A stretch of DNA of 45,806 nt from Patescibacteria group bacterium (GTDB lineage Bacteria > Patescibacteriota > Minisyncoccia > Minisyncoccales > PEYH01). Both the position numbers and the translations under genes were made by a program. The DNA is taken from NCBI GenBank assembly GCA_034722415.1, contig JAYENY010000006.1, positions 1 through 45,806 on the forward strand, in the 5' to 3' direction. The first letter of the stretch is position 1. Each line of letters opens with the position of its first letter. The notes under the pieces were generated by a model. The model worked only from the letters and a program-made list of their open reading frames with translations, had not been told where the DNA came from and ran no database searches. This document shows positions 6,653-30,826 of this stretch, piece after piece.

Positions 6653-7707
6653 ACCACCTGTTTTTTTAAATATTCTGCTGCTTTCTCAGGCTCAATAGTA
6701 GAAATTTCGATGCCAGTACACATCTCAAAACCAGCCATAGTCGCTGTTTTAGGCGCAATAACCCAATGCCAATGATAGTAATCGTGTTTTCTACCATCAC
6801 ATGGAGCTGTTTGGAGAAAAAAGTTATATGGAGGATCACTTAACCCTTTATTCAATTTTCTCATTGCCATAAAGAATGCTTCAGCTAATAATTTTTTCTG
6901 AGTTTCGGTTATCTTCTCAAAATATGGCAAATGTTTTTTCGGAGTAATAGATATCTCAAAAGCAGTCTTCGAGGCAAACGGACAAACAACTAAAAATTCT
7001 TTATTCTCAAAAATAAGGCGTTCATTGTATTTTTTATCCGCTTTATTCATTTGGCAATGACCACATTTTTTATGATGTTTGTAATAATTCTTTGCTCCTG
7101 ATAGGCTTCTCTTAATTTTCGGATCAATAACTGGTGTAGCAATAATCTGGGAATGAGGATGCGCAACAGAAGCACCAGCTTCAACTCCATGATTATGAAA
7201 AATAGAAATATAGTTAATGTGAGATTCTTTCATTATTTCCAAATATCTTGCTTGATAAACATCTATCAATTCTTTTATCTGCTCTACTGTAAATTCAGCA
7301 ATCTGTTTTGTGTGGTGGCGTGTGACAACCACTTCAGCTACTCCATAAGCGTTCATAAGGCTATGAAGCCCTCTTTTCCTAATGTCTAGACCATTTTGCT
7401 TAACAAAGGCTGGATATTTATTTGGAATAACAACCACACTCCAATCTTTTGGAATTAATGGAGTTTTTTCTCCGTTATTATAAGAATAAGTGCTTAATTC
7501 TCCCTTTCTAGATATTAACCATGGCGGTGCTTGAACTTCAATATTACAAAAGAAGCAATCTTTTTTAGGCACCACTTTTTTAATCCTTGTTTCTTTCTTA
7601 AATGTATCTGGTCTCTGCCCTCTGCCAGTAGCAATAACAACCCAATCTCCTGATATTAAAGCAAAACGAAGCTCTGAAGGAAATTTCAGCTTTTTATTTT
7701 TTGGCAT
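6649..7707 (-). CDS. galT: galactose-1-phosphate uridylyltransferase-like (GalT/HIT superfamily) nucleotidyltransferase
   Basis: Track ORF of 352 aa. CxxC zinc motif (DCFFCN) and the HPHSQI active-site His-Pro-His. Specificity (UDP- versus ADP-hexose) is not determinable here. Confidence 0.75.
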   Translation of the reverse strand: MPKNKKLKFPSELRFALISGDWVVIATGRGQRPDTFKKETRIKKVVPKKDCFFCNIEVQAPPWLISRKGELSTYSYNNGEKTPLIPKDWSVVVIPNKYPAFVKQNGLDIRKRGLHSLMNAYGVAEVVVTRHHTKQIAEFTVEQIKELIDVYQARYLEIMKESHINYISIFHNHGVEAGASVAHPHSQIIATPVIDPKIKRSLSGAKNYYKHHKKCGHCQMNKADKKYNERLIFENKEFLVVCPFASKTAFEISITPKKHLPYFEKITETQKKLLAEAFFMAMRKLNKGLSDPPYNFFLQTAPCDGRKHDYYHWHWVIAPKTATMAGFEMCTGIEISTIEPEKAAEYLKKQVV

Positions 7708-8517: not shown

Positions 8518-8859
8518 CTAGTTCCATAGCTGAAACAGAAAGTCGTCTATATCATCTCTAGCAACGATAACGAAGACGACACTTATTACAGCAACAATTA
8601 TGCAAACAACCATCAATTGTAACAAATTGTGGATATATAGCGCCAAGCACACTCCACTCCACATCAATGTCATGCCTATGGCATGCCAAAGAACTCCTGA
8701 TCGAGCTTTGCTCCAAATAGTAGGTCCGAATGTTATTATAATCCCTCCTGCAGCAACTAGCACAGCTGATACCAATAAGTTGTGATGTATCAAACCAAAC
8801 GTTGCTGCTAGAATAGCACAGCCAAACCCTGCGACAAACAGACCTATCTTAAGACTCAT
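8518..8859 (-). CDS. small integral membrane protein (approx. 4 TM segments), unknown function; cassette A gene 2
   Basis: Track ORF of 113 aa, hydrophobic throughout. Strong SD AAGGGAGGAAAG immediately upstream of the ATG. Higher G+C than its neighbours. Has its own terminator. Confidence 0.7.
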   Translation of the reverse strand: MSLKIGLFVAGFGCAILAATFGLIHHNLLVSAVLVAAGGIIITFGPTIWSKARSGVLWHAIGMTLMWSGVCLALYIHNLLQLMVVCIIVAVISVVFVIVARDDIDDFLFQLWN

Positions 8860-19600: not shown

Positions 19601-19777
19601 ATGCGAGTAGTTATCATTCATGCATGTTTGTCGGCGCTAGCAATCTTTGTAACAGGAACACTCATTCACTGGATTACAGGGTCGATTGCATGGGCTTCTA
19701 CCACAGGAGTTACTGTTCTGGTCTTGGCGGGTCTAGATTTTTGGCGCAGGATCCAGAACGGACAGGTGTATATGTGA
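19601..19777 (+). CDS. 58-aa two-TM small membrane protein encoded antisense inside the S10 operon (cassette B)
   Basis: Track ORF 19592..19777 with a GTG start. I prefer the ATG at 19601, 8 nt after GGGAGG (19587-19592). The sequence is MRVVIIHACLSALAIFVTGTLIHWITGSIAWASTTGVTVLVLAGLDFWRRIQNGQVYM. Two hydrophobic stretches. A promoter upstream and a hairpin plus T7 run downstream. Confidence 0.6.
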   Translation: MRVVIIHACLSALAIFVTGTLIHWITGSIAWASTTGVTVLVLAGLDFWRRIQNGQVYM

Positions 19778-26424: not shown

Positions 26425-26694
26425 TCAATCGTCTGAAATAAGGGCTAGAACCCGTTGACAAGCGCTATGAAGAGTCTCTCCTTTCCGACGATTCAAGTAG
26501 ATGTCATTCTTATCCACATAACTTACTCCAGCTTCTTGAGCTTTCTTACCAACAAGAACTTCTTTGATTCTTCGAGCTACTCCAGAATCGTCAGGTGGTC
26601 TTATAACGTAACGCTGGACACTGAGGTCCCATGCGCCCTCAAACTTAACTGTACGACCACAAACTTGAATAGAATACATCAAGAAATTAGGCAT
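26425..26694 (-). CDS. hypothetical soluble 89-aa protein (cassette D)
   Basis: Track ORF. GGGAGG (26699-26704, minus strand) lies 4 nt upstream of the ATG. Visibly higher G+C. Own promoter-like element and terminator. I recognise no family. Confidence 0.6.
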   Translation of the reverse strand: MPNFLMYSIQVCGRTVKFEGAWDLSVQRYVIRPPDDSGVARRIKEVLVGKKAQEAGVSYVDKNDIYLNRRKGETLHSACQRVLALISDD

Positions 26695-27081: not shown

Positions 27082-28359
27082 TTAAATATTTGGATTCGTT
27101 ACTCTACCCATAAACAGAATATTTCCCGTTAGATTATGTTCAATCAAAAACATAAATGGATGATCTGCGCGGAATGTTAATATTTTCGGTTCATTATTTG
27201 GGCCAGCTGATAATTCTTCCATTATAACGGCAGTAGCTGCAGCTGCCTCTGTCCCCTCTTCATTCACCTCAACAAAAGCTTGATGAATAACTTCGCTTAT
27301 AAACAAATCCTTATCCCCTGTCATCCCCGAAAAATCTGCTGAAGCTGATAGGGCGATAGGCATTCCCATCTCGCGTAAATCTTCAGCCATAAGATATTTA
27401 GTTTCAAACTTAAATTTAGGAATGAATATTTTAACTCTTTCTTCTTTTAACTCTTCTTTCCATTTTAATAAGTTTTGAGAATTAAATAAATTTTCTAACT
27501 TGTCCAGATTATCCTCTTTTGGAAGAAAAATTAACATAGACAATTCTTCACCCGAATAAGGCATTTCTAAAATCTGAAGATCTTCATTCTCTGCGTAATT
27601 GAATCTTGCCTCTTTGTCAGTACGTTCCATCATTGAAACTCTAACAATATTATTTTTGTCTATCTTAAAATCTTGGTCCCTAGTATTGTCTTCGTCAAAT
27701 TGTTGGACCCAACTCCCCTTGAAATAAATAGCATTTGTAAGGACTAATCTTGTGGCTGGATTAAGAACGTTTTTAGGGATTAAATCCTTTATTTTATTAT
27801 TTGTTTTCTCCTCCACCCAATTATTAATTATTATTCTTGCTTTTTCAGCATTTCTCTGAAAATCTACATTTGTTACTTTTCCACCATAATATTGGTCTAT
27901 GATATTAAAATAATCATTTAAAAACTCAAAATTCTTTTCCGCCCAAAGTGCGTTGGCTGTATGTAGCTTATAATCTTTATCTTCTCTATTTATCTCACCG
28001 AACATTTTAGCATATTCTGTTCTTCGTCTCTCATCATCGTCGGGGAAATAAAATACTGAACGCATTTGTTCGGCAGTCTCTCCTCTTGCCCCTTCATATG
28101 TCATTGCTAAAGAAGAAGACATGCTATAAGGCGAGAAAAAAATATTGCCTTCCTCTTTGTTTTTTAAATAATAATAAAAATCCAAAGCAAATTCATTATT
28201 AGCTTCGGTAACATTAGCTACGTCTTCTGGGTCTATCTTTGTTCTTGGAGTTACAGGATTTAATCCTGGAATATAAAATTCGTCTTCTTGAAATAGAAAT
28301 ATAGCAATAGCAACAATGACCAACCCTATTATTATAATTGTGAAAATTTTCCAATTCAT
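27082..28359 (-). CDS. serpin (serine protease inhibitor) with an N-terminal membrane anchor or signal
   Basis: Track ORF of 425 aa. FFSPYSMSSSLAMTYEGARGETAEQM. Inhibitory-type hinge EEGTEAAAATAV. FRADHPFMFLI. N-terminal hydrophobic helix IFTIIIIGLVIVAIAIFLF. Confidence 0.88.
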   Translation of the reverse strand: MNWKIFTIIIIGLVIVAIAIFLFQEDEFYIPGLNPVTPRTKIDPEDVANVTEANNEFALDFYYYLKNKEEGNIFFSPYSMSSSLAMTYEGARGETAEQMRSVFYFPDDDERRRTEYAKMFGEINREDKDYKLHTANALWAEKNFEFLNDYFNIIDQYYGGKVTNVDFQRNAEKARIIINNWVEEKTNNKIKDLIPKNVLNPATRLVLTNAIYFKGSWVQQFDEDNTRDQDFKIDKNNIVRVSMMERTDKEARFNYAENEDLQILEMPYSGEELSMLIFLPKEDNLDKLENLFNSQNLLKWKEELKEERVKIFIPKFKFETKYLMAEDLREMGMPIALSASADFSGMTGDKDLFISEVIHQAFVEVNEEGTEAAAATAVIMEELSAGPNNEPKILTFRADHPFMFLIEHNLTGNILFMGRVTNPNI

Positions 28360-28413
28360 ATTAATCTTCTTATTAATTATTCTTATCCTTTATCTTAACA
28401 TGATTTAAATAAT

Positions 28414-28477
28414 AAAAAATCCAACCTTGCGGTTGAAAAAAATTGAAGGGGCCAAGACTATAGTCCTAGCTCCCTTC
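28414..28477 (-). terminator. two tandem intrinsic terminators ending cassette C
   Basis: Minus strand reads GAAGGG-A-GCTAGGAC-TATA-GTCTTGGC-C-CCTTC then AATTTTTTT. This is followed by CAACC-GCAA-GGTTG then GATTTTTT. Confidence 0.7.
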
Positions 28478-28486
28478 GTATTGTTC

Positions 28487-28642
28487 CTAACTCGTTGCGT
28501 CAGGAAGCCTATCTCTAATCGTGAGCGGTTCATGCCCAGATCTCTGCATTCTAACGCGGCGAAGATATTCGAGCCACCTGGCTTCCCGATCTTTTTTAGC
28601 ATTAGTCACCGCTGAAATCTTAGCGCAACCTGCTGCCTTCAT
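28487..28642 (-). CDS. 51-codon basic small ORF (cassette C), coding status uncertain
   Basis: Not in the track. My translation is MKAAGCAKISAVTNAKKDREARWLEYLRRVRMQRSGHEPLTIRDRLPDATS. GAGGGAGGG (28651-28659) lies 8 nt upstream of the ATG (28640-28642). The stop TAG is 10 nt before the terminator stem. Confidence 0.4.
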   Translation of the reverse strand: MKAAGCAKISAVTNAKKDREARWLEYLRRVRMQRSGHEPLTIRDRLPDATS

Positions 28643-28848
28643 TAATACCACCCTCCCTCGATCTCCTTAAACTCCGAACTAATTCAGAGACTAAGGAAAT
28701 ATAGAGAGGAGAAGGTGGCGCCATTGCTTGCCACCTTCTCCGAACAGGGCTCTCAACCCATGGGAACAATCGGAGAAAAATTATTTTAACTTTCCTTCGA
28801 TTGCTCCCGGAGGGAGGAGCAATCATTGTGAAATGTACTAGAGAGTAC
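28643..28848 (-). ncRNA. approx. 200-nt G+C-rich structured leader, or the 5' part of an unclassified ncRNA (cassette C)
   Basis: Minus-strand hairpins: GTACT-CTCT-AGTAC; ATTGCTCC-[TCCCTCCG]-GGAGCAAT; a perfect 11-bp GAGAAGGTGGC/GCCACCTTCTC stem that competes with TTCTCCG/CGGAGAA; and AAGGAAA/TTTCCTT. The loop CCTCCCTC is complementary to the downstream SD GAGGGAGG. Confidence 0.4.
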
Positions 28849-28854
28849 ACCAAT

Positions 28855-28883
28855 ACCATATCATACTCTCTCTAGCTTGTCAA
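28855..28883 (-). promoter_or_regulatory. putative promoter of cassette C (TTGACA-N17-TATGGT with extended TG)
   Basis: Minus-strand TTGACA at 28878-28883, just upstream of the stop codon (28872-28874) at the 3' end of the HIT gene. TGA-TATGGT with the -10 hexamer at 28855-28860. Confidence 0.5.
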
Positions 28884-29273
28884 TAGCTGAACAACTTCTT
28901 CAAAATCATTTCCTTTATATACTCCTCTTGGCAACATTTTAACCATGTCCTCTTTATATCTTGGAACAACATGAAAATGGATATGATCTATCTGTTGTCC
29001 AGCCATAATTCCATTTCTCTGAAAAATATTAATAGCTTCCGCATTTAATTTTTCCTTCAGTAATTTTGCAACTTTCTGAACCTCAACTATCAATTTTTGC
29101 AATTCATCGGATGATATATCAAACACATCCTGATAGTGTTTCTTTGGAATAACTAACGAATGTCCTCTTGTGTAGGGATTAATGTCCAAAAACACAAAAA
29201 CGTTATCTGTCTCGTATACTTTGTGTGCTAAAATCTGACCCTTTAGTATTTTACAAAAAATACAATTTTCCAT
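28872..29273 (-). CDS. HIT (histidine triad) family hydrolase
   Basis: Track ORF of 133 aa. CIFCKI N-terminus and the HIHFHVVPR histidine triad. Confidence 0.9.
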   Translation of the reverse strand: MENCIFCKILKGQILAHKVYETDNVFVFLDINPYTRGHSLVIPKKHYQDVFDISSDELQKLIVEVQKVAKLLKEKLNAEAINIFQRNGIMAGQQIDHIHFHVVPRYKEDMVKMLPRGVYKGNDFEEVVQLLTS

Positions 29274-30444: not shown

Positions 30445-30826
30445 CTCTTTTTGAACGATAATCATCTACTGCGGCATGTAGTGCATCAATTGCTAAGATA
30501 GAACAATGAACCTTTATGTCAGGCAATTCTCCTAGCTCTTTTAAAACATTATTTTTGTTCAGCTTTAGCGCTTGATTAATTGTTTTTCCTTTTGCTAGTT
30601 CTGTGATTATACTACTAGAAGCTAATGCGGCAACGCATCCAAAAGTTTCAAAGGAAATATCCTGAATAACCTCTTCTCCTTTTTTATTCTTATTAATCTT
30701 TATATAAAGCCAAAGCACATCTCCACAAACTGGATTGCCAACTTTTCCTAACCCATCATAATCCTTTAGTTTTCCATAATTATGAGGATTTCTAAAAGCT
30801 TCGATGACTTTTTTAGAATAAGGCAT
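30434..30826 (-). CDS. iscU: IscU/NifU-like Fe-S cluster scaffold protein
   Basis: Track ORF of 130 aa. Three conserved Cys contexts (NPVCGD, FGCVAA, HCSILA). Confidence 0.88.
   Translation of the reverse strand: MPYSKKVIEAFRNPHNYGKLKDYDGLGKVGNPVCGDVLWLYIKINKNKKGEEVIQDISFETFGCVAALASSSIITELAKGKTINQALKLNKNNVLKELGELPDIKVHCSILAIDALHAAVDDYRSKRDGK

Follow-up and report, generated by a model that had tools for sequence, protein, structure and literature searches.

What is the role of a G+C-rich island that lies between two protein genes of an otherwise A/T-rich bacterial genome? The question is raised by a contig of a Patescibacteria group bacterium (JAYENY010000006.1, assembly GCA_034722415.1; "the window" hereafter means this whole stretch of 45,806 nucleotides [nt]), in which such an island separates a HIT gene from a serpin gene. 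Working from the letters alone, an earlier note had offered two readings of the island, either a structured leader followed by a 51-codon open reading frame (ORF) or an unclassified noncoding RNA. We found that the minus strand from 28883 to 28414 forms a single promoter-to-terminator unit, in which a promoter, a G+C-rich leader of ~205 nt, the 51-codon ORF and two terminators follow one another, and most of the tests named in that note, among them an Rfam search and a covariation analysis of homologues, favour the former reading. The leader belongs to a structured-RNA family that had not been catalogued and that is restricted to a single Patescibacteria family. Our favoured reading, to which we assign a probability of about 0.6, is that the leader exerts cis-acting translational control through a conserved two-state 5' module and keeps the start region closed until a signal acts.

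The three-strand module of the leader

The 5' part of the leader contains three strands, A, B and C (Table 1), among which B (GGGAGCAAUC...) has two alternative partners. With A it forms a 9-bp hairpin that has a C-rich tract as its loop; with C, which ends in ...GAUUGUUCCC, it forms an 18-bp hairpin. Relatives of the element were collected by BLAST and then with two covariance models of the 5' module, and the covariation statistics rest on 19 distinct sequences, with 500 column shuffles and slid registers of the helices as controls. For A:B, 99.4% of the cells were paired (15-56% in the slid registers) and six of the nine pairs had changed on both sides, a result that none of the 500 shuffles equalled. 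For B:C, the corresponding values were 94.4% (42-64% in the slid registers) and 13 of 18 pairs, and cells changed on both sides numbered 43 against 10.7 in the shuffles, none of the 500 reaching the observed number. Each helix exceeded every slid register and, on four of the five measures, every one of the 500 shuffles; the exception for B:C is the count of further pair types, which was reached in 61 of the 500 shuffles.

The two helices do not vary independently. Columns 45-53 of the alignment (A4) belong to both of them, and both partners vary in step with these columns. All three strands have changed together in four genera (g3, g4, g5 and g8); in g5, for instance, strand A reads GGUUGGGAC, strand B GUCCCAGCC and strand C GGCUGGGAU. 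The loop sequence CCUCC is kept in seven of the eight genera that bear the element, genus g4 having GUCUC instead. At the level of sequence comparison, coupled covariation of this kind argues strongly that the A:B and the B:C conformations both matter, and the conservation of both alternatives therefore indicates a folding pathway or a switch, not one static structure. Two mutually exclusive helices that are both visibly kept by evolution make an unusual natural case.

The earlier note had seen mutually exclusive helices as well, albeit in another part of the leader, namely a perfect 11-bp stem at 28711-28742 and a 7-bp UUCUCCG/CGGAGAA helix. The stem is real, sits ~2 nt off that position and has 12 bp if one further G-C pair is counted (P4 in Table 1). 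The 7-bp helix can be drawn in the copy of the window and is lost in relatives (UUCUUCG/CGGACGG in the genome G001). The conserved pair of exclusive helices is a different and much stronger one, A:B versus B:C in the 5' module, and does not involve the 7-bp helix.

Transcription unit, distribution and encoded protein

The consensus-like promoter and the two tandem terminators described in the earlier note were found where it had placed them, on the minus strand. The promoter extends into the end of the HIT gene, its -35 box lying within the final codons LLT, and relatives carry TTGACA-17-TATAGT (11/12 consensus matches) or TTGACA-16-TATAAT (12/12) promoters at the equivalent position, often within the end of a HIT gene that itself lies downstream of mnmA. 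Judging from the promoter spacing, transcription probably starts at ~28848, and the predicted RNA, comprising the leader, the ORF and both terminators, would be ~413-435 nt long. The first terminator escapes a simple terminator scan because of internal mismatches in its stem; a homologous sequence is present in G004 and at the locus L049. The G+C-rich island was likewise borne out, with 44-47.5% G+C over 28400-28899 compared with ~29-34% in the flanks. Folding of the minus-strand RNA yields -182.9 kcal/mol (z = -9.15; none of 100 dinucleotide shuffles folded as well), whereas the fold of the plus strand is weaker (z = -6.3). By these sequence signals, the unit is an independent gene with its own strong promoter, and it occurs as a single copy in the genome of the window.

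Table 1. Features of the promoter-to-terminator unit, in the order of transcription (positions in the window)
Feature	Coordinates	Strand	Sequence and remarks
Sigma-70-type promoter	28855..28883	-	TTGACA 28883-28878, 17-nt spacer, extended -10 TG-n-TATGGT 28860-28855; 10/12 consensus matches
P0, 5'-terminal hairpin	28834..28849	-	UGUACU-CUCU-AGUACA; from folds
Conserved single-stranded stretch	28825..28833	-	UUUCACAAU; family consensus C-UUU-n-CA, invariant columns
Strand A	28816..28824	-	GAUUGCUCC; partner of strand B in the early alternative hairpin
First C-rich tract (aSD1)	28809..28815	-	UCCCUCC; loop of the A:B hairpin
Strand B (shared strand)	28791..28808	-	GGGAGCAAUCGAAGGAAA; 5' half pairs with A or C
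Strand C	28762..28780	-	UUUUUCUCCGAUUGUUCCC; 18-bp B:C hairpin, loop 28781-28790
P3, small hairpin	28747..28759	-	GGG-UUGAGAG-CCC
P4, perfect stem	28708..28741	-	12 bp, GGAGAAGGUGGC / GCCACCUUCUCC, arms 28741-28730 / 28719-28708, 10-nt loop
Second pyrimidine tract (aSD2)	28703..28709	-	CCUCUCU, directly 5' of P5; can pair locally with the purine tract
P5, conserved hairpin	28662..28699	-	UUUCCUUAG-UCUCUGAA-UUAG-UUCGGAG-UUUAAGGAGA; immediately 5' of the purine tract
Purine tract, Shine-Dalgarno-like	28652..28659	-	GAGGGAGG; ends 9 nt before AUG
Coding sequence, 51-aa basic protein	28487..28642	-	MKAAGCAKISAVTNAKKDREARWLEYLRRVRMQRSGHEPLTIRDRLPDATS; stop 28489-28487
Terminator T1	28436..28477	-	GAAGGGAGCUAGGAC-UAUA-GUCUUGGCCCCUUC then AAUUUUUUU; stem 28477-28445 + UUUUUUU; from fold and reading
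Terminator T2	28414..28437	-	UUCAACC-GCAA-GGUUGGA then UUUUUU; found by scan (28437-28420 + U run)

No known RNA family accounts for the region. Rfam 15, whose families include RNase P RNA, tmRNA, 6S RNA, SRP RNA, the riboswitches and OLE/GOLLD/ROOL/HEARO/raiA, gave no match at the gathering threshold, neither anywhere in the window nor in five loci homologous to the element, and in 28300-29000 a search with E values up to 10 returned only chance matches of microRNA type (at most 20 bits). RNase P RNA (RNaseP_bact_a, 126 bits) and transfer-messenger RNA (tmRNA) lie elsewhere in the genome (G000:C14:16352-16680 and C18:4866-5206, respectively). Since both are on other contigs and Rfam is empty here, the obvious explanations of a G+C-rich island are excluded. 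A full-text literature search returned nothing on the leader motif, nor on the loss of the anti-Shine-Dalgarno (anti-SD) sequence in Patescibacteria.

The element is present in 13-14 of 26 genomes, and in eight of nine genera, of the same family of Patescibacteria (candidate phyla radiation, CPR) as the genome of the window (552 kb, 97% complete). Searches of 401 genomes sampled from the order and of 401 from the class gave no convincing copy, and viral contigs contained none. Additional variants came from a pattern scan of metagenomes and from looking up contigs. Two weak matches at the order level (G167, 43.6 bits; G064, 30.6 bits) were discarded, as they consist only of a B:C-like hairpin before unrelated ORFs, and a match in genus g7 (L028, 26 bits) looks spurious. 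The copies share a common plan, which runs from 5' to 3' through the promoter, P0, the C-UUU-n-CA stretch, the A/B/C module with its CCUCC loop, P3, a variable P4, a pyrimidine tract, P5, a purine tract 8-10 nt before the start codon, the small ORF and the terminators.

Some loci depart from this plan. In G010, a second copy of the element lacks strand A and carries an ORF of the window type (54 aa); immediately upstream of it (contig C22, L034:1444-1498) is a match to the type III hammerhead ribozyme (46.1 bits against a gathering threshold of 48.5, E = 2e-9). On the metagenome contig Ga0180732_1000882 (L058, ~7100-7400), the HIT gene, the promoter and the 5' module are intact and everything after strand C has given way to unrelated DNA that bears other ORFs, which looks like a disrupting insertion or deletion. 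On contig C22 of G008 (L022), P4- and P5-like sequences (GCUAGAUC... and CCUUUAGCUUCUAGAA..GGGCUUAAGG) are found ~330-480 nt 3' of the ORF of the element, beyond the terminators of this short-leader copy and close in front of a further strong promoter, so that the leader has seemingly been rearranged.

The 51-codon ORF is, on comparative grounds, real and conserved as a protein, as one of the two earlier readings had it. Its homologues are basic, hydrophilic products of 51-75 aa with no hydrophobic stretch, and share the motifs MK.A..CA..S, LDR..GRR, QRSG(R)HE and DRF/DRL. Conserved residues use differing synonymous codons (CGT, AGG or AGA for the Arg of LDR), and frame and length are maintained at 40% residue divergence (pairs of 51 versus 51 and 57 versus 57 residues). 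Differences at the three codon positions amount to 15/12/19 in close pairs and 29/22/43 in distant pairs; as the third-position excess is modest in the former and clearer in the latter, the protein is real and its constraint weak or diversifying. The family is a small one: a profile search of 1.84 billion representatives retrieved ~9 members, and neither Pfam nor NCBIfam gave a match. AlphaFold2 predicts a single long helix with a mean pLDDT (predicted local distance difference test score) of 77. A local likeness to the ribosome modulation factor RMF (PF04957; AHQRSG versus RAHQRG) was pursued and dropped, no Pfam hit being returned at E<=10 for five members or at E<=1 for three more.

Leader and protein have diverged to different degrees, the 5' module of the window being 90% identical and the protein 31% identical to those of G001. 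Genus g4 has this leader in front of an ORF for an unrelated Cys-rich protein of ~110 aa (hhalign probability 0.1%), which also weakens autoregulation by the encoded protein as an explanation. The earlier note had judged the two longer ORFs in this region to be noncoding, and neither proved to be conserved. The 79-aa minus-strand ORF (28620-28859), which has no purine tract and no relative, overlaps the leader with its helix-type conservation; genus g9 lacks its ATG, and only 39 codons of it are open in G001. The 65-aa minus-strand ORF (28405-28602) has neither a purine tract nor a relative.

Start region, remaining leader and 16S rRNA

Several parts of the leader outside the three-strand module recur in relatives. 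Hairpins with different sequences occupy the position of P0 (GUACAC..GUGUGC in G004, GUGC..GUAC in G018). Two of the four pairs of P3 covary in the consensus fold of relatives (UA/GC and GC/AU), and its loop motif, (A)CGAGAG, is conserved in most of the long-leader copies. P4 is cut down in the copy of the window, relatives having ~50 nt more in this domain; in them the outer stem covaries, and in the inner part, which the copy of the window lacks, GGA(U)GGUG is paired to (GAUCn)ACCUCCUUAC. The relatives with a long P4 thereby carry GAUCnACCUCCUUAC, which is almost identical to the 3' tail of canonical bacterial 16S rRNA and pairs with the GGA(U)GGUG "mini-SD". At the position of the second pyrimidine tract, relatives have (A)CCUCC or CACCCU. 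The sequence of P5 is highly conserved, with compensated variants, identified by reading, in G018 (UUCCCGA/UCGGGGU), G021 and the second copy of G010. The four bases that follow the first base of the start codon are invariably UGAA.

A purine tract (GGGGGA, GGAGGG or GGGAGG) stands at the same position in every ORF-bearing copy. As the earlier note had pointed out, the loop region of the leader is exactly complementary to this tract in the window, the 8-mer CCUCCCUC (28817-28810) matching GAGGGAGG (28659-28652); the latter sequence occurs ten times on both strands of the 552-kb genome, two of the occurrences being the pair within the leader itself. In the predicted closed form, the freed strand A and the C-rich tract pair with the purine tract, forming a closing helix that encloses P3-P5, and the conserved stretch UUUCACAAU pairs with UGAA near the start codon; the latter contact is seen in the single-sequence fold only. 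The consensus fold of six relatives retains the closing helix together with B:C, P3, P4 and P5. The Shine-Dalgarno (SD) sequestration proposed in the earlier note is plausible as a pairing and kept in the consensus fold, but it carries no cognate-specific covariation. Because the 16S rRNA of the lineage lacks the anti-SD, such sequestration is to be read as masking of the start region and not as competition with the 16S rRNA.

The 3' end of the 16S rRNA in the genome of the window (G000 contig C10, ~30448-30520) reads GAUCACACAAUUUUU and ends in ...UAGAUCACACAAUUUUU, with no CCUCC. The same holds for the 16S ends of eight other genomes of the family (nine of nine in all), where CCUCC is also missing from the following 700 nt. 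In an order-wide sample, 27 of 29 ends lack CCUCC and two keep GGAUCACCUCCUU. GGAGG lies upstream of the start in only 24 of 472 long ORFs (5%) of the genome, and GGAG/GAGG are not enriched. As CCUCC is missing from the 16S rRNA and GGAGG is rare before starts, translation in this lineage is largely SD-independent. A GGAGG-type tract 9 nt before a start codon cannot be explained in the usual way if the ribosomes, as it appears, have no anti-SD. On the same sequence evidence, the tract GAGGGAGG is more likely the docking partner of the C-rich tracts of the leader than a docking site for the 16S rRNA.

Some further observations concern start contexts and the 16S locus. Genes with a perfect AAGGAGG(U) are mostly richer in G+C (0.41-0.54 versus 0.34 genome-wide), often small and stand-alone; GGAGG-led examples in the window are 26425-26694(-), 19601-19777(+) and 8518-8859(-). 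Start-upstream regions are enriched in AAUAA/UAAUU/AUAAU, which could complement the A/U-rich 16S tail. At 28360-28413 of the window, and at L002 and L049 in relatives, the downstream serpin gene has no purine tract, and a conserved A/U-rich AAGGAUAAGAAUAAUUAAUAA(N)AUAUG common to the relatives precedes it as an example of the SD-free start context of the lineage. The first ~250 nt past the 16S 3' end (L065-L073) comprise a structured spacer that is conserved, GUCGACU..GUUGAAGAUUGAGAAUUCUAUUUUCAAC..AUCGAGUCAUCU..GGGACAACUCUAAGAAUU, as well as an intrinsic terminator, and in most of these genomes tRNA-Ile comes next; owing to this terminator, the 16S rRNA is apparently transcribed apart from the genes that follow.

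Proposed translational control and its alternatives

If the leader controls translation in cis, we envisage the following course of events. Strands A and B would pair first and hold the C-rich tract in the hairpin loop (A:B is the minimum-energy fold of nascent lengths by nt 52), until strand C, once transcribed, displaces A and creates the longer B:C hairpin (by nt 90). The freed strand A and the CCUCCCUC tract would then pair with the purine tract (by nt 200), the stretch upstream of A would pair with the AUG-proximal UGAA, and P3, P4 and P5 would come to be enclosed in one multi-branch domain that buries the initiation region. Should the first C-rich tract be unavailable, the pyrimidine tract next to P5 could mask the purine tract locally, and whatever holds A:B or occupies strand C would shift the masking from one tract to the other. 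Candidates for such a trigger are a protein, a ligand, cleavage of the long B:C helix by an RNase and the speed of transcription. Sequence and comparison establish the transcription signals, the conservation, the two covarying helices and the reality of the ORF; the folding order, the block of translation by masking and the existence of a trigger are inferred. The default state should be closed, since the purine tract is predicted to be more than 99% paired from 4 to 55 °C, and a leader that also stands before the unrelated cargo of genus g4 is what would be expected of a portable regulatory module.

Several observations weigh against this course of events. Fold predictions favour B:C at equilibrium by 14 kcal/mol over a form in which A:B is enforced, and both forms mask the purine tract, the latter through the second pyrimidine tract (paired with AGGGAGG), so that the model alone shows no ON state. 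A search for specific co-evolution between the C-rich loop and the purine tract gave no signal: the closing-helix duplex energies of cognate and non-cognate combinations are alike (-16.1 versus -15.6 kcal/mol), and covariation cannot support the closing helix because both tracts barely vary, the nearest to an exception being genus g4, where the loop GUCUC faces GAGAG. In the short-leader copies (G008 and L050), the module stands directly before the purine tract and P3-P5 are absent, and hence dispensable. In addition, G007 and contig 15 of G010 have the 5' module without any ORF, which fits a trans-acting RNA better.

Such an RNA, acting mainly or additionally in trans, whose C-rich loop and tracts would pair with G-rich tracts in front of other genes while the small ORF would be a passenger, is an unlikely alternative. 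RNAs of this dual kind are known, as in Staphylococcus aureus RNAIII with hld, and C-rich loops are employed by the small RNAs (sRNAs) RsaE/RoxS; like them, the element is a structured RNA of ~0.4-0.5 kb that encodes a small peptide and has C-rich hairpin loops complementary to G-rich ribosome-binding regions, although it shares no homology with them and the best complement of its loop lies in the same molecule. Conservation of the 5' module far exceeds that of the ORF, the cargo varies by genus, the two ORF-less modules are followed only by a terminator, and the A:B form presents CCUCC in a hairpin loop. Moreover, the ~5% of long ORFs with GGAGG at -14 to -8 despite a 16S rRNA without anti-SD could be targets of an sRNA. 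Nevertheless, most copies are followed by an ORF with a conserved purine tract, no part of the unit complements the loop better than the purine tract of the element itself, and the ORF-less copies may be decaying remnants, given that L058 is clearly disrupted. An extension of the idea holds that the RNA is the carrier of the anti-SD-like sequence of the cell, acting in trans on GGAGG-led genes or as a decoy. It may then be a dedicated repressor, an adaptor that couples mRNAs to the anti-SD-less ribosomes, or a decoy for a factor that formerly recognised the SD:anti-SD helix; up to three CCUCC tracts per RNA are found in the family, the GAUCnACCUCCUUAC of the long-P4 relatives among them, and we consider this extension very improbable.

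Alternatively, the leader may belong to one of the established classes of cis-acting RNAs. A ligand-binding riboswitch, with P0-P3 or P3-P5 as the aptamer and the A/B/C strands as the expression platform, would account for the portable leader before unrelated cargo, the two covariation-supported helices with one common strand and the conserved loop and linker motifs (C-UUU-n-CA, (A)CGAGAG and CACUAGAU). The platform resembles that of the thiM thiamine pyrophosphate (TPP) riboswitch, with its succession of anti-anti-SD, anti-SD and SD, in being portable, in having a shared strand that chooses the helix and in masking the start. Unlike thiM-type platforms, the leader has no recognisable aptamer or ligand and large parts of it are dispensable in some copies; it is a string of hairpins with no obvious conserved multi-helix junction, no Rfam riboswitch matched it even at E values up to 10, the cargo proteins give no metabolic hint and the distribution is very narrow. 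A riboswitch is thus improbable. The mRNAs of type I toxin-antitoxin systems (hok, aapA), in which metastable hairpins and anti-SD tracts silence a harmful protein until processing, offer a structural parallel: Gultyaev, Franch and Gerdes are said to have described three-strand coupled covariation and an early hairpin in hok-family mRNAs in 1997, and Masachis et al. reportedly found successive SD-masking hairpins in aapA3 in 2019. As in hok and aapA-IsoA, one strand has two alternative partners held by coupled covariation, the early 5' hairpin is predicted to be replaced during transcription, the 5' end is shut onto the start region in the final fold, and the purine tract can be covered by more than one pyrimidine tract; the ORF is also small, basic and quick to evolve, and all predictions show its start masked. 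The leader has no sequence similarity to them, nothing in it points to an activating 3' processing, and the ribosome of the lineage has no anti-SD. The product, furthermore, is hydrophilic and predicted to be a soluble long helix, not a membrane peptide, and the unit is single-copy. No defence (PADLOC) or toxin-antitoxin-type neighbour is evident, although no search aimed at one was made. Consensus scans, which weak promoters could escape, found no antisense promoter of at least 10/12 inside the unit of the window and no position-conserved one in G001, G018 and G004. The analogy to type I toxin leaders drawn in the earlier note is consequently not supported, and we regard a toxin mRNA of this kind as decidedly improbable.

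The other analogy of that note, to thermosensors, fares no better. ROSE and fourU thermometers also mask the start region by base pairing in the 5' untranslated region, but the masking helices here are predicted to be far too stable, the purine tract being less than 1% unpaired from 4 to 55 °C, and the leader is much larger; on the predicted insensitivity of the masking to temperature, a simple RNA thermometer is unlikely. The idea that the island is a functionless G+C-rich spacer whose hairpins and ORF arose by chance has in its favour only the general point that G+C-rich sequence folds well. It is already refuted by the comparative data, namely the conservation in eight genera with compensatory changes in two helices and a conserved promoter, and an ORF that stays open with a constant length within subgroups, as well as by the fold strength relative to dinucleotide shuffles. 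Cis-acting translational control by a two-state leader therefore remains the reading that we favour.

To our knowledge, the structured regulatory RNAs of CPR/Patescibacteria are almost unexplored. The leader described here, with its promoter, several helices and covariation, is defined well enough for a new RNA family. The small protein is a tractable lineage-specific orphan, and its tight control hints at a dose-sensitive role. The element as a whole is a handle on the control of initiation in bacteria whose translation is SD-independent.

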